From Candidatus Omnitrophota bacterium (GTDB lineage: Bacteria; Omnitrophota; Gorgyraeia; Zapsychrales; Aceulaceae), in NCBI GenBank assembly GCA_028693815.1, contig JAQUUP010000002.1, positions 7,056-71,055 of the forward strand: a stretch of 64,000 nt of DNA. The letters are read 5' to 3'. The position numbers were made by a program, and so were the translations under genes. Below the pieces are notes generated by a model, which made no database searches, was not told where the DNA came from, and saw only the letters and a program-made list of their open reading frames with translations. This document shows positions 31,499 to 42,242 of this stretch, in pieces (the stretch's first letter is position 1; the number at the start of each line of letters is the position of its first letter).

Positions 31499-32147
31499 AA
31501 AACGTATTGATAAGATTGTTTGTTTGCTTCGCAAGGCTGTTAAGAATTTGAGTGAACCGTCTGTGACCCTTGTAGGCAAGAAATGGAATGACCCATTTTT
31601 AGTTCTTGTTTCTTGTATTTTAAGTTTACGAACAAAAGACGAGACAACGCTTTTAGCATCTCAAAGGTTGTTCGAATTAGCCATGAATCCTAAGGCGATG
31701 TTGACGCTGTCGGTTTTGCAGATTGAAAAGGCCATTTATCCGGTTGGATTTTATAAAACAAAGGCACGCAACATTAAGGGGATGTGTAAGGATATTCTAG
31801 AGAAGTTTGGCGGCAGGGTGCCGGATGAAATTGAGGACTTGCTTACCCTCAAAGGAGTCGGAAGAAAAACTGCTAATCTGGTTTTAACGGAAGGGTATGG
31901 TAAGCTCGGTATCTGTGTTGATACCCATGTTCACCGAATATCAAATCGACTAGGATATATAAAAACAAAGAATCCAGAGCAGACAGAAATGGCTTTAAGA
32001 AAAAAATTGCCAAAAAAGTTTTGGATAGAGTATAATGCGCTGCTTGTCACGTGGGGACAAAATGTGTGTCGGCCAATATCGCCAAGATGTACTGAATGCG
32101 CGATTTCAGAATTGTGCTCAAAGAAAAGCGTGACAACGAAAAGATAA
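31479..32147 (+). CDS. nth: Endonuclease III (HhH-GPD DNA glycosylase, 4Fe-4S)
   Basis: LKGVGRKTANLVL helix-hairpin-helix, catalytic D, and C-terminal CRPISPRCTECAISELC cluster. Confidence 0.85.
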   Translation: MVQLSDKKRIDKIVCLLRKAVKNLSEPSVTLVGKKWNDPFLVLVSCILSLRTKDETTLLASQRLFELAMNPKAMLTLSVLQIEKAIYPVGFYKTKARNIKGMCKDILEKFGGRVPDEIEDLLTLKGVGRKTANLVLTEGYGKLGICVDTHVHRISNRLGYIKTKNPEQTEMALRKKLPKKFWIEYNALLVTWGQNVCRPISPRCTECAISELCSKKSVTTKR

Positions 32148-32150
32148 ATC

Positions 32151-32359
32151 AACTTATAAGTTTTAAGTTGTAAGTTTTAAGTTTAAAGAAGGCATTTAGG
32201 GAATTGTCAGCATTGACAAGGAAAAAGGTCTAGCGGATAATTATTCTTTTTGCGTTTTATTCACAGCGCACCTTTTAGTAAAAACTTGTTTTATTTAGAA
32301 CCTAACACTTAACACTTAATACTTATAACTTATAACTTAACGCTTACATCTTACAACTT
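32151..32359. promoter_or_regulatory. Symmetric repeat/operator region: TAAGTT-type repeats, palindrome TTGTCAgcatTGACAA, then a tandem AACTTAA-type heptamer array
   Basis: 12-nt perfect palindrome AACTTATAAGTT at 32151-32162, followed by TAAGTT repeats to ~32188. TTGTCAGCATTGACAA at 32204-32219. About 8 degenerate heptamers (cACTTAA / tACTTAT / aACTTAa) from 32303 to 32359, ending 5 nt before the ATG. Confidence 0.4.
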
Positions 32360-32364
32360 TTATT

Positions 32365-33651
32365 ATGGACCTTTTTATTTTTTTCTCAGAAATTTTAGGC
32401 AGGAAAGTTATTGACCAAAACAATGACTGCATAGGGACTTTGTGTGATATTGGGATGAATGTCGGAAAAGAGGTTTATCCTAAGTCTAGCTATCTTGTTG
32501 TTAAAAGAGGTTTTTTTGGCAAACGCTTTGCCCAAGTTCCTTGGGAAAAGGTGTATGATCTAAGCAAGGCGTTTAGGGTTTCTGTTGTAAAAAGTGAGAT
32601 TCAATATCAGAAGCAACGACCTCAATATGAGCTTACGCTTTGCCGGGATGTTTTAGATCAGCAGGTTGTTGATACGGATGATCAAAAAGTTGTGCGTGTC
32701 AATGATGTGAGTTTTTTAAAAGTTGATAATTTTCTTTATATGGCGCATATGGATGTTGGGTTGCGCGGACTTGCTCGACGGTTGGGTTGGGCAAAAATGA
32801 TCGATAATTTCTTAAAATCATTCTTTCCTAACGTTTTATATTTAACAAAAGAAGATTTTATTCCTTGGAAAAATACACAAATTCTAACGCTTGGGCGCAC
32901 GAAGAATGTTTTGCGTCTTAATATTGCACGAGAAAAATTATCTCAAATTCCTCCAGCTGAATTAGCCGAGATTATGGAGGATTTGGATATTTTTGAGAAA
33001 TATTCCTTATTTAAATCATTTGAGCCTCTTGTTCAGCAGCGAGTGTTTTCTGATCTGTCCACTTCTGAACAAGAAGAAATTATTGATCAAATGAGTGATG
33101 AGGAGGCAGGAAAACTTCTTGAGAGTATTCCGTCTGATGATGCGGTTGATCTTTTGCTGAGTTTGCCAAAAGAGAAGACTTCTGTTTTGATGCGCTTGAT
33201 GGGAACAAAGAAATCTAAGAAATTGCGTGAACTTCTAGATTTTGAAAGAGATTCGGCGGGCGGCTTGATGACCACAGAATATTTATTTTTGCCGCAAAAT
33301 GCATTAGTTAAAGACGCGATGAAAAAAATTCAAGACAATGTGCAATCATCGGCAAATATTTATTATATTTATATTGTTGATGAAAAACATCATTTGCTAG
33401 GGTTCACATCATTGCGTAATTTTATTAATAAAGATTCGTGGATACCAATATTAGATACGTGTTATCCAAAAAACGTTTTTGTACGCACAGATGATGGCAT
33501 GGAAGAAATTGCTCTTCTTTTAGAAAAATATAAGTTTTCCGTGATTCCTGTTTTAGATGAAAACGATGTTTTAAAAGGTGTTATTACCATCGACGATGTT
33601 TTAGAAGAGCTAATTTCTATTGCATGGGGTAAATATAAGGAAAAATTATAA
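32365..33651 (+). CDS. Soluble PRC-barrel + MgtE N-terminal domain + tandem CBS protein (MgtE cytoplasmic Mg2+-sensing module without a TM domain)
   Basis: MgtE_N signature PAELAEIMEDLD...SDDAVDLLLSLP...DSAGGLMTTE, then a CBS pair. No hydrophobic segment. Confidence 0.8.
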   Translation: MDLFIFFSEILGRKVIDQNNDCIGTLCDIGMNVGKEVYPKSSYLVVKRGFFGKRFAQVPWEKVYDLSKAFRVSVVKSEIQYQKQRPQYELTLCRDVLDQQVVDTDDQKVVRVNDVSFLKVDNFLYMAHMDVGLRGLARRLGWAKMIDNFLKSFFPNVLYLTKEDFIPWKNTQILTLGRTKNVLRLNIAREKLSQIPPAELAEIMEDLDIFEKYSLFKSFEPLVQQRVFSDLSTSEQEEIIDQMSDEEAGKLLESIPSDDAVDLLLSLPKEKTSVLMRLMGTKKSKKLRELLDFERDSAGGLMTTEYLFLPQNALVKDAMKKIQDNVQSSANIYYIYIVDEKHHLLGFTSLRNFINKDSWIPILDTCYPKNVFVRTDDGMEEIALLLEKYKFSVIPVLDENDVLKGVITIDDVLEELISIAWGKYKEKL

Positions 33652-34919
33652 TGAAGATTATTGAGCGGATAAAAAACACAAAAATGGTCAGGAACTTTTT
33701 TATATTCTTGGCGATTATGGGGCCAGGAATTATAACGGCAAATGTCGATAATGATGCGGGTGGTATTGCGACTTATTCTTTGGCAGGAGCTCATTTTGGC
33801 TATACGCTTTTGTGGTCGCTTATTCCGATTATGATTGCTTTGATTATTATTCAGGAAATGTGTGCGCGCATGGCTGTTGCGACAGGCAAGGGCTTGGCTG
33901 ATCTTATTCGCGAAAATTTTGGCGTTAAGATTACGTTTCATTTGATGTGGATCTTGCTCGTGGTTAATCTTTTAAACGTTATGGCAGAATTTGCTGGTGT
34001 TGCTGCAAGTCTTGAAATTTTTCATGTGAACAAACTTATTTCTGTTCCCTTGGCGGCATTATTTGTTTGGATGCTCGTGGTTAAAGGGACATATAAGTCA
34101 GTGGAAAAAATATTTTTGACAGCTTGTTTGTTTTATGTGACATATGTTTTTTCTGGATTCATCGCAAAGCCAGAATGGACCGAAGTTCTTAAGCAAACCA
34201 TAGCTCCTGAGTTTACATTTGATTTTAAATATTCTGTCATGTTAGTCGGTATTATTGGAACAACGATTGCTCCTTGGATGCAGTTTTATTTGCAATCATC
34301 AATTGTTGATAAAGGGGTCAGTGTTGAAGAATACAAGCATGTGCGCATGGATGTTGTTGGAGGAAGCATCATCGCTCCAGTGGTTGCTTTTTTTATTGTG
34401 GTAGCGTGTGCAGCGACGTTGTTTAAAGCCGGGATTACGATCGAAAGCGCTAAAGATGCGGCAATGGCTCTTGAGCCGTTGGCAGGACAAAATGCAAAAT
34501 GGTTGTTTGCTTTTGGTCTTTTTAATGCGTCTATTTTTGCAGCGTCTGTTTTGCCGTTATCAACGGCGTATTGTATTTGTGAAGGAATGGGATGGGACAC
34601 TGGCGTTGATAAGCGTTTTGAAGAAGCGCCTCAATTCTTCGGTCTTTATACAGCTTTGATTATTATTGGTGCTGGCGTTGTTTTGATTCCTAATTTTCCT
34701 TTGCTTAAAATTATGTATTTTTCTCAGGTTGGAAACGGCATCTTGCTTCCATTTATTCTGATTTTCATGTTGCTTTTAATTAATGATAAGAAATTGATGG
34801 GAGACTTTATTAATAATCGATTCCTAAATATTATCACGTGGATAACGGTTGTATTGATTATTGTGCTAACAGTATTGATGGTTGTTTTTTCTTTGTTGAA
34901 TCCTGGTCAGTTGATATAA
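33651..34919 (+). CDS. Nramp-related transporter with non-canonical metal site (NRMT-like, putative Mg2+ transporter)
   Basis: Nramp/LeuT-fold topology. TM1 has VDNDAGG instead of DPGN and TM6 has APW instead of MPH (Asn to Gly, Met to Ala), as reported for Nramp-related Mg2+ transporters. TAATG overlap with the upstream gene. Confidence 0.75.
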   Translation: MKIIERIKNTKMVRNFFIFLAIMGPGIITANVDNDAGGIATYSLAGAHFGYTLLWSLIPIMIALIIIQEMCARMAVATGKGLADLIRENFGVKITFHLMWILLVVNLLNVMAEFAGVAASLEIFHVNKLISVPLAALFVWMLVVKGTYKSVEKIFLTACLFYVTYVFSGFIAKPEWTEVLKQTIAPEFTFDFKYSVMLVGIIGTTIAPWMQFYLQSSIVDKGVSVEEYKHVRMDVVGGSIIAPVVAFFIVVACAATLFKAGITIESAKDAAMALEPLAGQNAKWLFAFGLFNASIFAASVLPLSTAYCICEGMGWDTGVDKRFEEAPQFFGLYTALIIIGAGVVLIPNFPLLKIMYFSQVGNGILLPFILIFMLLLINDKKLMGDFINNRFLNIITWITVVLIIVLTVLMVVFSLLNPGQLI

Positions 34920-35275
34920 AAGAGTATAAGTTTTTCAAAAATGAGCATCTTTTCGATATTGGATTCTTGTTTTTTACATGAATGTATTGACAACGGTTCC
35001 TCAGTATGTTAAAAAAAATATAAAGAAAGTTAACGTAGGTTCTTAAAATTATGATTTTATTCATGAACAAGTACGAAAATTTAGGTATTTCCTTTTCAAG
35101 GATTTTTGTCTTCTTAACAAGGCGGGCAAGTCCTGCTGCTCGAGGTTTGTGGATGGGAACAACGGCTTTAGCGAGTGGGCTTCATTGACATACTATGTCC
35201 ATCAAATAAGATTTTCAAACGAAAGGATTTCATAAAAGAATTATAACTTAAACTTATAATTCTTTTTTTTTGATC

Positions 35276-36289
35276 ATGACAATGATAATTGGTTTGACAT
35301 ATGATGCAAAAGAAGATTGTCCTGTACGCCAAGGTCAGCCTATTGATTTTAATGCTGAACTAGATCCGCCGGATACGATCAATGGTATTATCGCGGCGCT
35401 AGAGTCTGGTGGGCACAAAGTTAAGAAAATAGGAAATTTTAGAAATCTTCTTTCACAGATTGATTGTCTTTGTGTTGACATTGTTTTTAATATTTCTGAA
35501 GGGTTGGTTGGAAGAAACAGAGAATCGCAGATTCCAATGTTGCTTGAGCTGTATGATATTCCATATATTGGATCAGATGCGCTAACGCTTGGAATAACGT
35601 TGGACAAGATGGTTTCCAAAAAATGCTTTGTTGCTGATAATATTCCAACAGCGCGATCATTGATCGCAAGGTCAGTTGAGGACCTAAAAGATCTTGGAGG
35701 CCTTCAGTTTCCTTTGATGGTTAAACCGTGCTATGAAGGAACATCCAAAGGGATTACATCATTATCGCGAGTTGAGAATTCAGAATCACTAGAGACCCAG
35801 GTAAGGTTTGTTACCAACCAATATCATCAGCCAGCGATCGTTGAGGAGTTCATCAAAGGAAGAGAGTGCACGGTTGTTGTTTTAGGAAATGATGAGCCTA
35901 TCCCTATGCCTATTGTGCAATATCAGATTGATGACCAGCTTGATGGAGATGCTTTTTATACTTCTGAGCATGTGCGCAAAGAAAGTGTTAATTATATTTG
36001 TCCTGCACAAATAAGCCCAGAGTTGACTTCTCGGCTGCAAGAGCTAGCTGTTAAAGTTTATAAAAGTGTTGGATGCCGCGATTTTGGCCGAGTTGATTTT
36101 CGGATTGACGAGAACGACAATCCGTATGTTCTTGAGATTAATCCGTTGCCGTGTTTAGCACGAAAAGATACTTTTTCGTTTGTTGCCAAAGAGATAGGCA
36201 AATCGTTTGAAGAAATGATTCTTTGGGTTTTGGACGAAGGACTAAAAAGATTAAAAATGGATAAACAAACAATAGGAACTTGCGCATGA
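35276..36289 (+). CDS. Ddl-like ATP-grasp ligase (non-canonical N-terminus)
   Basis: IPYIGSDALTLGITLDKMVSKK, EEFIKGRECTVVVLGN and GRVDFRIDENDNPYVLEINPLP parallel D-Ala-D-Ala ligase motifs, but the N-terminal GGxSxExxVS motif is absent. Confidence 0.65.
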   Translation: MTMIIGLTYDAKEDCPVRQGQPIDFNAELDPPDTINGIIAALESGGHKVKKIGNFRNLLSQIDCLCVDIVFNISEGLVGRNRESQIPMLLELYDIPYIGSDALTLGITLDKMVSKKCFVADNIPTARSLIARSVEDLKDLGGLQFPLMVKPCYEGTSKGITSLSRVENSESLETQVRFVTNQYHQPAIVEEFIKGRECTVVVLGNDEPIPMPIVQYQIDDQLDGDAFYTSEHVRKESVNYICPAQISPELTSRLQELAVKVYKSVGCRDFGRVDFRIDENDNPYVLEINPLPCLARKDTFSFVAKEIGKSFEEMILWVLDEGLKRLKMDKQTIGTCA

Positions 36290-37467
36290 ACCCAATTAAT
36301 GAAACAACTCAACAGGCTCAAGAAAAAGCGATTGCGCTAAGAGTTAGTTTATCTTCTAAAGAGAATCGTTTTATTAATTTCTTTGAGAATGCTACTCCGA
36401 TTGATTGGGAAGATTGGACTTGGCAAATTAGTCATCGTATTAGGACTAAAGAAACTTTGTCTGAGATGCTTGATTTAACTTCTGAAGAAATTCAAGGCAT
36501 CGAAGGGTGTGGGCAAAAACTAACTATGGCAATTCCTCCTTATTTTGCTTCGTTAATCGATCCGAACGATTCTAATTGTCCAATTCGAAGGCAATGTATT
36601 CCTGTCAAAGATGAGTTGATAAAATCTGCCAATGAGCTAGAAGACCCATGCGCAGAAGATAATCATTCTCCTGTGCCAGGGCTTGTACATCGATATCCGG
36701 ATCGAGTTTTGTTTTTAGTTAGCGAAATGTGTGCGATGTATTGCCGTCATTGTACGCGTTCGCGCATGGTTGGAGAAGGAAGGCGCAAGAGAAAAACGTC
36801 TCATTATGAAGATGCATATAATTATATTCGATCAAATAAAAAAATTCGTGATGTTTTAATTTCTGGCGGAGATCCATTGATGCTAAGCGATGAAACGCTC
36901 GAAGACATTATCAAGAACATTAAAGCTATTGCGCATGTGGAGCTTGTCCGCATTGGAACAAGGGTGCCTGTTACGATGCCGCAGCGGATCACTGGCAACT
37001 TAGTGGCTATGCTAAAGAAATATAGTCCTCTTTGGATGAGTATTCATTTTAATCATCCTAAAGAAATTACTAAACGTGTGCGTTTTGCTTGTGAGCTTTT
37101 ATCTGACAATGGTATTCCTTTGGGGAGTCAGACTGTGCTTTTAAAAGGAATTAATGACAAGCCGTATATTATGAAAAAATTAATGCACGAGCTTCTCAAA
37201 ATTCGCGTTCGTCCATATTATATTTATCAATGTGATCCGATTGTCGGGTCTAGCCATTTTCGCACACCAATTTCAACAGGAATTGGCATTATTGATAAAT
37301 TGCGGGGGCATACTACCGGGTACGCAGTTCCCAAGTATGTTATTGACGCGCCCGGCGGCGGTGGCAAAATTCCTATCGAACCGAATGCCATTATTTCTCA
37401 AGATCAGAATACATATGTTTTGCGGAATTTTGCCGGAGAACAATATACTCATCACGATCCACAATAA
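36286..37467 (+). CDS. kamA: Lysine 2,3-aminomutase family radical-SAM enzyme (KamA-like)
   Basis: CAMYCRHCTRSR (CxxxCxxC) plus KamA-family flanks. At 395 aa it is longer than EpmB. ATGA overlap with the ATP-grasp gene. Confidence 0.8.
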   Translation: MNPINETTQQAQEKAIALRVSLSSKENRFINFFENATPIDWEDWTWQISHRIRTKETLSEMLDLTSEEIQGIEGCGQKLTMAIPPYFASLIDPNDSNCPIRRQCIPVKDELIKSANELEDPCAEDNHSPVPGLVHRYPDRVLFLVSEMCAMYCRHCTRSRMVGEGRRKRKTSHYEDAYNYIRSNKKIRDVLISGGDPLMLSDETLEDIIKNIKAIAHVELVRIGTRVPVTMPQRITGNLVAMLKKYSPLWMSIHFNHPKEITKRVRFACELLSDNGIPLGSQTVLLKGINDKPYIMKKLMHELLKIRVRPYYIYQCDPIVGSSHFRTPISTGIGIIDKLRGHTTGYAVPKYVIDAPGGGGKIPIEPNAIISQDQNTYVLRNFAGEQYTHHDPQ

Positions 37468-37679: not shown

Positions 37680-40600
37680 ATGAGAAACTTGTCTAAGAAA
37701 TCAAATACTTTTCGCTATGTCACAATTTTTACTTTGGTGTCTTTCTTTTTTCTTTCTGTCATTCCATCTCAAGCTTTAGCGCAAGGGGTGCTGGGTCTGC
37801 CCCAGCCGGGCGCAATGGTTAATTTAAGCCCTTCGTTTCATCCGGCTCTCCTAAGAGGTATTCAAATCCAGCCCAATGATCCTTTGCGCTTTGATTTTAT
37901 TGTGGATACCGGGGAAACAGGCCTTGAAGGCAAAGCCTTTGAAGTCGAAGCCACCAAGCTCATCAAGTATTTTCTCGCTTCCCTCACCATTCCTGAAGAA
38001 CAGTTTTGGGTCAACCTGTCTCCTTATGAGAAAGAGCGTATCATTGCCGATTCCTTAGGGGAGACCGAGATGGGCCGTGACCTTTTAGCTCAAGATTATG
38101 TTTTAAAGCAATTAACTGCCACCCTTGTGGATCCCAATAGTGATTTAGGCAAGAAGTTCTGGGAGCGTGTTTATAAAAAGGCCTATGAGATGTATGGCAC
38201 AACCCAGATGCCAGCCAATACCTTTAATAAGATATGGATTATTCCAGATGAGGCTGTTGTTTACGAAGAAGGCAACATCGCATTTGTTGGAGAAAGACAT
38301 TTAAAGGTGATGCTCGAAGAAGATTATCTTTCCCTTCAAAGCAATGCCAAGCGAGAAGACTTAGGCGTTAGCAAGCTCCAAGACGAAGAAATGAAGAAAC
38401 TCGCCGCGGTTTCTTCTGGCGTTGTCCGTGATGTCCTTGTTCCTGAAATAGAGAAAGAAGTCAACGGCGGTAAGCTCTTTGCTAATTTGCGACAGATCTT
38501 TGATGCCTTGATCTTGGCCACATGGTATAAGAAAACCCTTAAAGATAGTCTTTTAGGCCAGGTCTATGTGGATAAAAACAAGACGAAGGGTGTCGATGTT
38601 GATGATAAAACGATTAAAGATCAGATTTATCAGCAATACCTTGAGTCCTTTAAGAAGGGTGTCTTTAACATGATCAAGGTTGAAAAGGATGCTGTCTCTG
38701 GTAAGAATATCCCGCGCAAGTACTTTTCAGGTGGTATCACCACGGGTTCATCTGTTCTGAGTATCAAAAAATTGGTTGTCAAGAAAATAAGGTTTTTAGG
38801 AAAAGAAGTTAGAAATCTTTTTATGTCATTTGATGAAAAGGGCAGAATGTTCAAAGTCGGCGCAGGTGTTGGGACGAGTCAAGGTTTTCCTCCTAGAGCG
38901 CCTACCTTAGGAGAACGACAGGAAGAGAGGTACGAAAATCTTTTGGCTTCTTTGCCGAATGCAACGGGAGAAAATGCTCGTACAATTTTCTTGCAGTTAG
39001 CCGGAAGGGTTGTGGAAAATCCCGGAGAATGGTGGCACCGTGTCGCTTTGTATATGAGCAATGAATTATTTCCTTCGGCGGTTGACGCATTGATAATGGA
39101 AGCTGACTCTCTTTTAAAAATTAAAAAGGAGTTATCAAGTGTACAAGATTATTCTAGAAAGAATATGCCGTATGTCAATAATCTTACACAGCAAGAAAGA
39201 AAATCAGGCAGAGCTATCAATCAATTGCTTATGATTCTGCTGAGATCCATCGACATAAAGACAGTAAGCCTTGTAAGCGATTCTGATCTCGATAAATTAG
39301 ATCAGTTAAAGAGAAATGCTCCGGGGGAAGGTATTCTTCAAGGTGGAGAGCAGGAATATCTTAGTGGCCTTATCTTTCGTGCGAGAAACATGAATGCTCA
39401 GGCAGAGCTTCTTAAATTAAAGGGGCTGGCCGGGACATATAATCGGATCGGAGATTCTCGCCAAGCAGACCCTCAAAAAAGTGCTCCAACATTGAAGGAA
39501 TTACAAACTCGATTATTGCCTTATTTAGAGGGAATTAACTTAAATTTAGCTGAAGCCCTAGAGTCTTGGGGCGACAGAGATGGGTTTGTATTGATCGAGC
39601 TCATGCTCCGCGAGGAAGAAGGAGCTAGAGTTTTCAATCAAGCAGTTGGCAAACAGCCAGCGGAAGAAATTTCTACAATGACAGGTGAAGGGCTGATACG
39701 TTTTCTTTATGATCAAGGCTTGAGCGAACATACAAGCAGTGAAGTTCGCAAGGCCGGCTCGGCGATTATCGAGCGAGTAAAAGATATTTTAGAGGAAAAC
39801 TATCCAACTCTTATGAGCAAAGGTCTTTATTTTAAAGAAGTAGCAACCAACAAGGGGAATGCCCTTTTATTATCATCTTATCATGAAGAAGGATCGTTAA
39901 TGATATATCAAGATATGTCCAATGAAGTTGATGGCCAGCAAAATGTTGTAATTCAACAAATAGTAAAGCTGCTTGAACTACCAGATGAAGAAGAAATAGG
40001 AGGGGTAAGTGGCGTAAAGAGGTATTTTATTAACTCAAGATATAATATACTTTTTGAAAGAAATGTTAACAGAACTACTGATGAAGACATTAAGAATGTT
40101 ATTGATCTTTTTATTAAGGACAAAGGGAGAGTCGCTTCGTCAGGGGTGAGCGTTACAACTAATAGGGTTTTAAGAGTTTTGAATACTTATGCCTTGCAAA
40201 AGAGAGGCATTGAGCGAAAAATTATAAATCTTCTTTCTGGCCCTAAGGCAGTATTTATATTCAGGTCAGGCCAAAGCTCAAAAGAGGGAGGCTTATTCTT
40301 TTATGAAGGGAAAAATGGGATTTCTTATATTAAAAGAGGAAGAGCTTATGTTGTTATTCCGGATTTTGTTTCAGATCCCTTAAGCATAATTGCTTCAAGA
40401 AAAACTGTAAAGATGAATGTGAGTGATTTAACAGAAGAAAAGATTCGAGAGGTTATTGATGAATTTCTTGCAGAAGATTCACAAAAAGAACAAGAATTTA
40501 AGAAATTAAAAGATGAGTTATCTCAAAAAGATAAAGAAAAAATGGATTCTTTAATACGGGGCCTTTTGGTATTTACAGAGCACTGTAAGGAAATTGAAGA

Positions 40601-42242
40601 AGATTCCGGTCCGCTGCTGGTAAGAACTGCCTTAAGCAAAGAGATTGACAGGATCGATGGCGATCTTTTTACTTTGCATGAAGGATATCAAGGATTTCCG
40701 CAGGCTCAACAAAAGATTGATTCCGCTAGAAATATTTTTAAAGAATTTCAAACTGATTTAATCGGGTCTCTCACGCTTTCCAATCCAAAAGATACTGCGT
40801 TTGATAGGACCATGCGATCTAAATCGTATGTTTATAATCGAGCTATTTCTAACCTTAGATCTTTGACTGGATCATCATCGCTTACTTTTAATCAAGCAAA
40901 GCAATGGGTTTTAAAAATTTTGAAAGAGGATGCCAATAGTCGAAATCCTGTCTTTTTAGAGGGCGAGATTGAGCGAGTTAGTAAAGTTGAAACCATACTA
41001 GGTTTACAAGTTGTTAGCCTTAGATTGCTTCGAGATCTTGACAAAATGAACGCTGAAGATGTGCAAAATCCTCTAGGGCTTATCAACGCAAAAGAAGCCT
41101 TAGTTGATTTTCGTTATGCAGTCCGAGAAGCACGAAATCAAAAACGGGGGAGTGTGGGCTCTAAACAAGATTATTTTAATAAGAAATATTCTGTCATGAC
41201 TCGAACTGAAGCACGCGATGAAATCTTAGCTATCATGAACACAATTAAAGAGCGAGATCCTAATAATGCGCTTGCCTGGAGAGAAAATAGAATGGAACAA
41301 CAAGTAGGAGATTTTCTCACCTTCCATAGTTTATATAATTTTGCCTCTGAATTTTTAGATGACGCTGAGTCTGATTTAAAAGAAAATCCTCCAGAGACTC
41401 TTGAAGATGAACATTTAATTTATGAGGTTATTGTTCGCCTAAACAATCTTCTTTATAGTATTGAAGATCAGGCAAGGCAAGAGCTTGGAGACGAGCTAGT
41501 GGAGGAAGATGGGTTACAGGGCTTAACTTTTGCTAATGGACGAATAGCAGATAGCGCTGATAAGGCCTCATCAGGCGATATTGATTTAAATGCAGATGGC
41601 ACCGGCCAAGGTACCGCCGGCTCGGCGATCACGCTGGATCAGGCAAAAAAGATGGTCATGGGAGAAATAGCAAGGCTTAAGCAGCCAGGCAATGAAGGAG
41701 AGCGAACGATCTTTCCTGATAAAATACGAAATCAATCGGTCGTGATTAATAAGAATGGCATAGCCATGCTTGCCTTTGGTGGGTTGATAGGCCAGGATCA
41801 GGCGCCGAGTACCCAGTATGATTTCTTAGAAATTGCGTCTGATTTGTTGGTGGAACTTTCAGAGAATCTTGAAAATCCAGATAAAATTATAGAGACGTTG
41901 GTAAGCGGAAAGGAGATCAAGATTAAGGATTTTGTGGGCAATGCCAAAGAGATCGATATTCAAAGCCTAACTTCAAGACAGCAAGATGTTTTTAGGACTG
42001 TTATAGCGGCCAGAGCCGAAAAGCAGACGGTTGGTGGTATTGATTTAGGTCAGGCAAGTTCGGTATTGCAAATCAAGCGTGATGGAAACGGAATGGTGTT
42101 ACCGCTTAATCAGCAGTCGTTGGAATTTCAGAATATTCAAGGATTTACACCGTTTATTATTAATGTGACAACGTTTAATCCCGCAGCCTTATTAAGTCAG
42201 ATTGAGTCTGGAGGTAGCGAGGTTGCATCGTTGGATACGTAA
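37680..42242 (+). CDS. Giant secreted protein (1520 aa), hypothetical
   Basis: Signal peptide with no recognisable catalytic motif. The N-terminal ~1.5 kb is markedly GC-richer than the rest of the gene and the genome. Confidence 0.5.
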   Translation: MRNLSKKSNTFRYVTIFTLVSFFFLSVIPSQALAQGVLGLPQPGAMVNLSPSFHPALLRGIQIQPNDPLRFDFIVDTGETGLEGKAFEVEATKLIKYFLASLTIPEEQFWVNLSPYEKERIIADSLGETEMGRDLLAQDYVLKQLTATLVDPNSDLGKKFWERVYKKAYEMYGTTQMPANTFNKIWIIPDEAVVYEEGNIAFVGERHLKVMLEEDYLSLQSNAKREDLGVSKLQDEEMKKLAAVSSGVVRDVLVPEIEKEVNGGKLFANLRQIFDALILATWYKKTLKDSLLGQVYVDKNKTKGVDVDDKTIKDQIYQQYLESFKKGVFNMIKVEKDAVSGKNIPRKYFSGGITTGSSVLSIKKLVVKKIRFLGKEVRNLFMSFDEKGRMFKVGAGVGTSQGFPPRAPTLGERQEERYENLLASLPNATGENARTIFLQLAGRVVENPGEWWHRVALYMSNELFPSAVDALIMEADSLLKIKKELSSVQDYSRKNMPYVNNLTQQERKSGRAINQLLMILLRSIDIKTVSLVSDSDLDKLDQLKRNAPGEGILQGGEQEYLSGLIFRARNMNAQAELLKLKGLAGTYNRIGDSRQADPQKSAPTLKELQTRLLPYLEGINLNLAEALESWGDRDGFVLIELMLREEEGARVFNQAVGKQPAEEISTMTGEGLIRFLYDQGLSEHTSSEVRKAGSAIIERVKDILEENYPTLMSKGLYFKEVATNKGNALLLSSYHEEGSLMIYQDMSNEVDGQQNVVIQQIVKLLELPDEEEIGGVSGVKRYFINSRYNILFERNVNRTTDEDIKNVIDLFIKDKGRVASSGVSVTTNRVLRVLNTYALQKRGIERKIINLLSGPKAVFIFRSGQSSKEGGLFFYEGKNGISYIKRGRAYVVIPDFVSDPLSIIASRKTVKMNVSDLTEEKIREVIDEFLAEDSQKEQEFKKLKDELSQKDKEKMDSLIRGLLVFTEHCKEIEEDSGPLLVRTALSKEIDRIDGDLFTLHEGYQGFPQAQQKIDSARNIFKEFQTDLIGSLTLSNPKDTAFDRTMRSKSYVYNRAISNLRSLTGSSSLTFNQAKQWVLKILKEDANSRNPVFLEGEIERVSKVETILGLQVVSLRLLRDLDKMNAEDVQNPLGLINAKEALVDFRYAVREARNQKRGSVGSKQDYFNKKYSVMTRTEARDEILAIMNTIKERDPNNALAWRENRMEQQVGDFLTFHSLYNFASEFLDDAESDLKENPPETLEDEHLIYEVIVRLNNLLYSIEDQARQELGDELVEEDGLQGLTFANGRIADSADKASSGDIDLNADGTGQGTAGSAITLDQAKKMVMGEIARLKQPGNEGERTIFPDKIRNQSVVINKNGIAMLAFGGLIGQDQAPSTQYDFLEIASDLLVELSENLENPDKIIETLVSGKEIKIKDFVGNAKEIDIQSLTSRQQDVFRTVIAARAEKQTVGGIDLGQASSVLQIKRDGNGMVLPLNQQSLEFQNIQGFTPFIINVTTFNPAALLSQIESGGSEVASLDT

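Follow-up and report, generated by a model that had tools for sequence, protein, structure and literature searches.

In a 64,000-nt stretch of the genome of Candidatus Omnitrophota bacterium (GCA_028693815.1, contig JAQUUP010000002.1, positions 7,056-71,055 of the forward strand), which is referred to as the window, two adjacent genes encode a soluble protein resembling the cytoplasmic part of the Mg2+ channel MgtE (gene 1, 'sol') and an Nramp-related Mg2+ transporter (NRMT; gene 2). The locus is a typical member of the known 'MgtE-like cytoplasmic fragment + NrmT' cassette, which was described in 2014 (Shin et al., PLoS Genet 10:e1004429, PMC4072509). The anatomy of the two proteins, their homology, their site residues and their near-obligate co-occurrence are established here. 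It is highly probable that the cassette provides an NRMT-type Mg2+/Mn2+ importer plus a dedicated partner. The overall best explanation, in which the partner is a detached sensor-brake of the MgtE type acting together with the NRMT importer, is judged to have slightly more in its favor than against it.

Conservation of the gene pair

The association of the two genes was assessed in two independent scans. The alignment of the soluble protein was searched against one genome per species, which resulted in 80 loci, and conversely the NRMT alignment was searched against metagenome contigs, which also resulted in 80 loci. The genomic loci stem from Omnitrophota, WOR-3, Elusimicrobiota, Planctomycetia, Acidobacteriota, Nitrospirota, Myxococcota, Chloroflexi, Dormibacterota, Desulfuromonadales, Peregrinibacteria, Eremiobacterota, Verrucomicrobia, Armatimonadota, Eggerthellaceae and archaea, and they represent more than 15 phyla. 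An NRMT gene is located directly downstream of the soluble gene on the same strand in 59 of the 80 loci, and 38 of these 59 pairs overlap or are separated by a gap of at most 30 nt. In the metagenomic NRMT loci, the soluble gene is directly upstream in 72 of 80 cases and adjacent but convergent in two, while five contigs were too short and a single locus had none. The soluble gene adjoins the NRMT gene in 74 of the 75 assessable metagenomic loci, and in both scans the adjacency is far beyond chance.

A functional linkage of the soluble partner and the NRMT is very well supported since this near-obligate adjacency in both scans is accompanied by an overlap and a synteny that are kept in relatives. 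The preliminary description of this locus, which was made from the sequence alone, had proposed that the two genes act together, and this idea is supported by their co-occurrence across phyla. In the window, the TAA stop codon of gene 1 (33649-33651) and the ATG start codon of gene 2 (33651-33653) have one A in common, forming TAATG, and an AAGGA motif is located 9 nt upstream of this ATG. The 1-nt overlap within TAATG is also kept in the relatives L081-L083, and close relatives whose soluble protein is 84-87% identical share both this overlap and the era-nnrE-nth ... ATP-grasp-kamA surroundings. From the spacing, we infer that the two genes are co-transcribed.

The transporters found downstream of the soluble genes are uniform at the metal site. 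The sixth transmembrane helix (TM6) has the NRMT-type sequence T-T/S-I/V-(A/T/S)-P-(W/Y/F) in all 57 transporters in which the region is present and never Met-Pro-His. The D-x-G-G motif in TM1 is kept in 58 of 59, with N-S-A-G in the remaining one (L001). The locus L040 (4001-6676), from a metagenome-assembled genome (MAG) of Eggerthellaceae, encodes an NRMT that is 72% identical to EleNRMT, the NRMT of Eggerthella lenta, with the soluble gene immediately upstream. By this analogy, the product of the soluble gene is the probable native partner of EleNRMT.

The transporter and its soluble partner

Gene 2 encodes a full-length Nramp protein (Pfam PF01566, 2.8e-100). Its best match among all PDB sequences is, by a wide margin, EleNRMT (7QIA, E-value 8.4e-116), which aligns end to end, whereas the canonical Nramps ScaDMT and DraNramp match at about 1e-22 or weaker. 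The residues D35, G38, T204, A207 and Q359 align residue for residue with D55, G58, T224, A227 and Q379 of EleNRMT. Within the motifs NVDNDAGGI (31-39) and GTTIAPWMQ (203-211), TM1 keeps the Asp and carries Gly for the canonical Asn (DPGN to D-A-G-G), while in TM6 the canonical Ala, Met and His are replaced by Thr, Ala and Trp, respectively (A-x-x-M-P-H to T-T-I-A-P-W). The Gln of helix 10 is shared by 54 of 60 partnered homologues, and T204 is conserved in all 58 sequences covering this position, which comprise the window protein and 57 partnered transporters. By every sequence criterion applied, gene 2 belongs to the NRMT clade of the SLC11/Nramp family.

EleNRMT carries Mg2+ and Mn2+, not Ca2+, and does so without H+ coupling (PMC8806188). 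Its residues D55 and Q379 are essential, and the T224A exchange abolishes the transport of Mg2+ while that of Mn2+ is mildly affected (PMC8806188). For the C. acetobutylicum proteins, Mg2+ transport is known by complementation (PMC4072509). By analogy with EleNRMT, the gene 2 product would import hydrated Mg2+, as well as Mn2+, with the membrane potential as driving force and without proton coupling; its own substrate may be Mg2+ and/or Mn2+.

The gene 1 protein was modeled with AlphaFold2 from 99 homologues (predicted local distance difference test score 85). From the N-terminus onwards, the model shows two beta-barrels and, after a disordered linker (176-187), an N domain of ten helices, which is followed by the CBS pair and a C-terminal helix (409-427). 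The fold of the MgtE_N superhelix and the CBS pair is present, in agreement with the Pfam matches to MgtE_N (196-296, 1.5e-20) and to two CBS stretches (6.7e-15), and with the phmmer match to MgtE cytoplasmic domains (2YVY, 7e-35). The C-terminal helix corresponds to the region of MgtE in which the CBS domain ends and the plug helix begins, and the N-terminal barrels match the PRC model of Pfam (PF05239) and the CdpB structure. These tandem PRC-barrels are constant across the soluble-partner loci examined. Mean column conservation is highest in the C-terminal helix (0.78) and the second barrel (0.75), and the first barrel is the domain with the lowest value (0.52). The protein is acidic, with 66 Asp and Glu versus 57 Lys and Arg residues, and its family is sizeable, comprising 388 clusters at 50% identity with E-values of at most 1e-30.

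The gene 1 product is not an MgtE channel, since the pore domain is absent. The Pfam search gave no match to the MgtE membrane domain (PF01769), and the protein has no hydrophobic segment, with a maximum Kyte-Doolittle value over 19 residues (KD19) of 1.26. The mgtE equivalog model TIGR00400 reaches 146 bits, which is under its cutoff of 232.75, with profile positions 20-255 alone being matched.

A related architecture was observed in an Actinomycetota MAG (L060, 3995-5743), in which PRC, MgtE_N and CBS domains are fused to a C-terminal membrane domain with a weak PF01769 match (E-value 0.008). Further matches of this kind are P0158, P0160 and the roughly 600-aa proteins P0261-P0368. Proteins of this type are best read as PRC-bearing divergent MgtE-like channels. 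Their possession of the same module suggests that the soluble partner descends from a PRC-bearing MgtE.

The residues forming the Mg2+ sites of Thermus thermophilus MgtE (TtMgtE), with site roles taken from PMC5882242, were mapped by HMMER alignment onto 99 members of the soluble family. D258 and D262 of gene 1 correspond to TtMgtE D91 and D95 (Mg4 and Mg6) and D411 to D247 (Mg4), and all three are conserved in 99 of 99 members. Mutation of D91, D95 and D247 abolishes the Mg2+-dependent closure of MgtE (PMC5882242). Among the cytoplasmic sites of MgtE, only the acidic residues of Mg4 and Mg6 are invariant. D250 of Mg5 is replaced by Glu, while the Mg2 position E258 is variable (K/S/R/T/G), and the acidic residues of Mg2 and Mg3 correspond to G422 and K423 in the window protein. 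The ATP pocket of the MgtE CBS pair is formed by Y170, R187, D188, N203 and F227 (PMC5529423). Of these, R187 (R351 here) is conserved in 94 and F227 (F391) in 78 of the 99 members, and the position of Y170 (Y334) is variable.

The preliminary description had anticipated much of this anatomy. The VDNDAGG and APW motifs, with Asn-to-Gly and Met-to-Ala substitutions of the NRMT type, were recovered in the alignment to EleNRMT, in which no canonical Met or Asn falls at the metal site and EleNRMT is by far the nearest relative. Likewise, the Pfam results agree with a gene 1 product composed of a PRC-barrel, MgtE_N and two CBS domains without a membrane domain, and the stop/start overlap was found as described. 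Its reading of the N-terminus as a PRC-barrel holds but was incomplete, since two barrels are present in tandem and the second is among the best-conserved parts of the protein.

Possible mechanism and its alternatives

MgtE and CorA use cytoplasmic Mg2+-sensing domains as a protection against cation overload. An uncoupled importer that follows the membrane potential could accumulate the ion in excess, and a cytoplasmic brake would plausibly be needed. It appears that the NRMT clade has acquired the MgtE sensor in detached form for this role. The gene 1 product would be made in step with the transporter through the overlapping stop and start codons, and a divalent cation bound at the retained clamp between N domain and CBS pair (D258, D262 and D411, equivalent to Mg4/Mg6) would bring the module into its closed state. 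PRC-barrels typically serve in docking between proteins, in many cases to a membrane partner. Contact with the transporter would be made via the well-conserved second barrel, the C-terminal helix with its basic and aromatic residues, or both, and the docked, closed module would limit uptake when cytoplasmic Mg2+ is sufficient. In MgtE, these domains perform this task in cis.

Three features agree with such a sensor-brake bound to the carrier: the Mg4/Mg6 carboxylates are kept, the pore-contacting sites of the plug helix are lost, and a conserved extra barrel and a basic-aromatic helix are present. The same hypothesis was reached by Shin et al. (PMC4072509). Direct regulation of the NRMT by its partner is plausible on the basis of these features; physical binding, the direction of regulation and the ion that is sensed are what we infer beyond them. 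That a divalent cation exerts direct negative feedback is judged about as likely as not. The more specific proposal, in which partner and NRMT assemble stoichiometrically and the partner gates the transporter in trans in response to cytoplasmic Mg2+, with the Mg4/Mg6 clamp as sensor and the second barrel and C-terminal helix as docking or plug elements, is tentative and falls a little short of an even chance. If such a complex exists, it would be the first MgtE-type sensor controlling an unrelated LeuT-fold transporter, and the published NRMT structures and kinetics would represent half of the native machine. A sensor-brake acting in trans would also explain how a voltage-driven, uncoupled Mg2+ importer avoids overloading the cell. 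The MgtE sensor would then be a portable module, and the missing subunit for NRMT biochemistry would have been found.

Several observations, which are given here and in the following paragraphs, weigh against this mechanism. Co-expression of Acp2976 and Acp2977 of A. capsulatum in B. subtilis gave no added rescue from the partner (PMC4072509), and NRMTs function alone, both in complementation assays (PMC4072509) and in proteoliposomes (PMC8806188). In the 99 aligned members, D259 of Mg3 is replaced by Lys, E59 of Mg7 by Lys or Arg and D226, one half of Mg5, by Lys, so that these positions are almost always basic. The ATP site is kept only in part, with D188 and N203, which contact ribose and adenine, exchanged for Arg or Asn and for Tyr or Phe, respectively. 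Regarding the MgtE-type Mg2+/ATP sensor of the preliminary description, the Mg4/Mg6 residues and R351 and F391 are in place, but Mg2, Mg3, Mg7, half of Mg5, D188 and N203 have been lost.

The partner could also be a cytoplasmic metal chaperone or buffer, which takes the hydrated ion at the exit of the transporter and passes it on without gating. This alternative was likewise proposed by Shin et al. (PMC4072509), who named cytoplasmic feedback regulation or chaperone activity for the fragment. It would agree with the acidity of the partner, with invariant carboxylate clusters such as D98/D103/D114/D130 in the second barrel, and with a transporter that functions without its partner. However, cytoplasmic Mg2+ is millimolar and free and would leave no obvious role for a Mg2+ chaperone, and the homologous domains of MgtE are an allosteric sensor (PMC5882242, PMC5529423). 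This explanation is considered improbable.

The identity of the ion bears on both the sensor-brake and a further alternative. The NrmT of A. capsulatum behaved mainly as a Mn2+ importer, as it fully rescued a Mn2+ import defect and relieved Mg2+ deficiency only at millimolar Mg2+ (PMC4072509). The pair might therefore serve primarily Mn2+ or mixed divalent uptake, with a partner sensing Mn2+ or the adenine nucleotide or energy status rather than Mg2+. This NrmT, which rescues the Mn2+ defect better than the Mg2+ defect, is encoded next to an MgtE-like gene and lacks a riboswitch, and EleNRMT also transports Mn2+. The ATP-pocket residues R351 and F391 are kept, which would fit nucleotide sensing, but the contacts to ribose and adenine (D188 and N203) are lost. 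Against this alternative, T204 is invariant in the sequences covering it, and the matching T224 of EleNRMT is specifically needed for Mg2+.

The distribution of M-box riboswitches enters on both sides of this alternative. According to Shin et al., many operons of the fragment gene and nrmT are located behind M-boxes, and others, such as that of A. capsulatum, are not (PMC4072509). No Rfam match was found in the window, nor in the region 31900-32600 at E-values up to 10, and an M-box was not found. It is also absent from 14 of 16 other loci scanned, so most operons of this sample, whose loci come from outside the Firmicutes, are riboswitch-less. In the other two, an M-box is located directly upstream of the soluble gene, namely in Pelotalea chapellei DSM 13688 (L027, 3750-3915) and in a Verrucomicrobiia MAG (L047, 508-704). 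In these two genomes, the whole two-gene operon is predicted to be Mg2+-controlled. The NRMT of L027 is 64% identical to gene 2 and has an identical site motif; M-box control of such a close homologue speaks against this alternative, and the M-boxes at both loci tie the subclade to Mg2+. P. chapellei is a cultured organism carrying the partner gene. Taken together, a pair dedicated mainly to Mn2+ or mixed uptake, or a partner sensing something other than Mg2+, is regarded as unlikely.

A further point against the sensor-brake is that about 19 of the 80 soluble-gene loci have no adjacent NRMT, including the syntenic Omnitrophota locus L003 and several loci of Pyrinomonadaceae. Orphan soluble copies were observed in L003 (4001-5716), L012, L031, L037, L044, L046, L051, L059, L069 and others. 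In L003, the flanking synteny of the window is kept, with an SRPBCC gene where the NRMT would be. The orphans of Pyrinomonadaceae adjoin genes for an SLT transglycosylase and a zinc-ribbon protein, and other Pyrinomonadaceae loci have an NRMT-linked copy. Such orphans, notably L003, L012, L051 and those of Pyrinomonadaceae, would be expected if the partner were a general PRC/CBS signaling protein that acts mainly on a target other than the transporter, the adjacency being a matter of co-regulation only. The occurrence of the PRC, MgtE_N and CBS module in the Actinomycetota fusions (L060 and the roughly 600-aa matches) points in the same direction. This is hard to reconcile with a soluble gene adjoining nearly every assessable NRMT and with the frequent stop/start overlaps. 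Furthermore, no recurrent transporter or other recurrent neighbor was found beside the orphans, whose neighbors are PAP2, HATPase-domain, SLT transglycosylase, redoxin and SRPBCC proteins. A general signaling role is accordingly given a low probability.

Two additional approaches did not strengthen the case for the sensor-brake either. A mirror-tree comparison over 57 pairs gave a Pearson correlation of 0.49 (Mantel p 0.001) and a Spearman correlation of 0.05; this signal is weak, uninformative and confounded by shared phylogeny. No genuine fusion protein of soluble partner and NRMT was found in the concatenated-protein search. The candidates for natural fusions as Rosetta-stone evidence, which were P0137 (834 aa), P0146, P0130 and others with MgtE_N/CBS and Nramp parts, were all rejected, the contigs behind these frameshift artifacts being rich in indels. 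P0137 and P0146 (L084) contain Arg/Gly/Pro-rich out-of-frame stretches that indicate frameshift artifacts. In the contig of P0130 (L085), the frame is shifted a second time after the second barrel and before the N domain, which is probably a long-read indel artifact. In P0126 (531 aa, 12 member sequences), MgtE_N is joined to the NRMT at a common AGG motif without the CBS pair, and this is probably an assembly chimera or a pseudogene arisen by deletion.

Two statements of the preliminary description need to be revised in light of these results. A protein-level, riboswitch-independent control of an NRMT was thought to be new; the pairing, the riboswitch-less case and the feedback idea had all been described by Shin et al. 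(PMC4072509). Its terms 'Mg2+ uptake unit' and 'regulates the pore' are hypotheses, because the partner had no effect in the one co-expression test and the transporter in question behaved mainly as a Mn2+ importer.

Locus and comparison with known systems

The features of the locus are listed in Table 1.

Table 1. Positions of the cassette features in the window
Feature	Position	Strand	Description
Upstream spacer, 217 nt, lineage-specific	32148..32364	+	inverted arrays of 7-nt units; sigma70-like promoter match; no riboswitch
Soluble partner gene (gene 1, 'sol')	32365..33651	+	428 aa; tandem PRC-barrels, MgtE_N, CBS pair and C-terminal helix, without membrane domain
PRC-barrel 1 (aa 1-75)	32365..32589	+	Pfam PRC 5-66, 24.7 bits versus cutoff 21.2; beta strands in the AlphaFold2 model
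Second barrel, PRC-like with helical insert (aa 92-173)	32638..32883	+	invariant Q100, D103, R111, D114, R138, W168
MgtE_N helical domain (aa 185-292)	32917..33240	+	invariant D258, D262; Pfam; alignment to 2yvy/2yvx
CBS pair (aa 298-408)	33256..33588	+	Pfam CBS, two stretches
C-terminal helix (aa 409-427)	33589..33645	+	invariant D410, D411; W421, K423, Y424 nearly invariant
Coupling junction	33637..33653	+	AAGGA ribosome-binding site within the end of gene 1, plus TAATG stop/start overlap
NRMT-clade Nramp transporter (gene 2)	33651..34919	+	422 aa; metal-site residues D35, G38, T204, A207, W209, Q359

In the spacer upstream of gene 1, TAAGTTN occurs about five times at 32150-32190 and its complement about eight times at 32299-32353 (12 matches versus 0.26 expected). 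A TTGACA-17-GATAAT promoter match is located at 32213-32241, and the spacer folds with a z-score of -2.4. At this position, the relatives with 84-87% identity carry only 31 nt, which include a GGGA/AGGA ribosome-binding site. A conserved leader RNA was ruled out since the 217-nt spacer is absent from these relatives; it resembles a small repeat element whose insertion has replaced the original ribosome-binding site.

Downstream of the cassette (35270-37467), a gene for an ATP-grasp protein resembling D-Ala-D-Ala ligase overlaps one for a KamA-like radical-SAM lysine 2,3-aminomutase. This pair is kept in L003 and L081-L083 and may belong to a beta-lysine-related pathway. It is followed by a 1520-aa open reading frame (37680-42242) with a hydrophobic segment at the N-terminus. 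The window has a G+C content of about 37%, 37 of its 40 open reading frames of at least 200 aa are on the + strand, and all 2-kb bins of the profile show a positive GC skew. The whole contig appears to be located on the leading strand of one replichore.

The pairing of the two genes has been known for more than 10 years, and the window locus alone adds little to it. In the operons of Shin et al. (C. acetobutylicum Ca_c0685; A. capsulatum Acp2976/Acp2977), the order is the same, with the fragment gene, found beside most nrmT genes, immediately upstream of a transporter of the Nramp outgroup NrmT. The riboswitch-less variant of A. capsulatum is like that of the window, and the same regulatory hypothesis had already been stated. 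In contrast to these operons, the window cassette belongs to an uncultured member of the Omnitrophota and lies within a string of housekeeping genes. Its stop and start codons overlap by 1 nt, and it is preceded by the lineage-specific, repeat-bearing spacer of 217 nt. Shin et al. call the partner a 'small protein', and the searched passages of their paper do not mention the tandem PRC-barrels that are constant in the loci here. No later work on the partner protein was found in the searchable full-text literature. The searched text of the EleNRMT paper does not mention the partner under 'MgtE' or 'operon', and Cellier's SLC11 phylogeny paper likewise contains no discussion of it. Beyond the work of Shin et al., the constant tandem PRC-barrels, the invariance of Mg4 and Mg6 only, and the M-box frequency of 2/16 are added here.

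Compared to EleNRMT (Ramanadane et al. 2022, eLife), gene 2 is identical in about half of its residues over the full length. The metal-site residues are the same (Asp, Gly, Thr, Ala and the Gln of helix 10), as is the Trp in place of the proton-pathway His. EleNRMT was studied without a partner.

The partner differs from the cytoplasmic domain of MgtE (T. thermophilus 2YVY/2YVX; 8GPV; 2OUX) in that it has no membrane domain and terminates some 18 residues after the plug-helix region begins. It carries an extra N-terminal tandem of PRC-barrels and has lost Mg2, Mg3, Mg7 and half of Mg5. Compared to other PRC-barrel proteins, such as the H subunit of the photosynthetic reaction center, RimM and the archaeal CdpB1/CdpB2 (PDB 8QZO), the barrels of the partner differ in being fused to a metal-sensor module. 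Finally, the MgtE domain acts in cis, while the presumed target of the soluble partner is an unrelated LeuT-fold carrier, on which it would act in trans.

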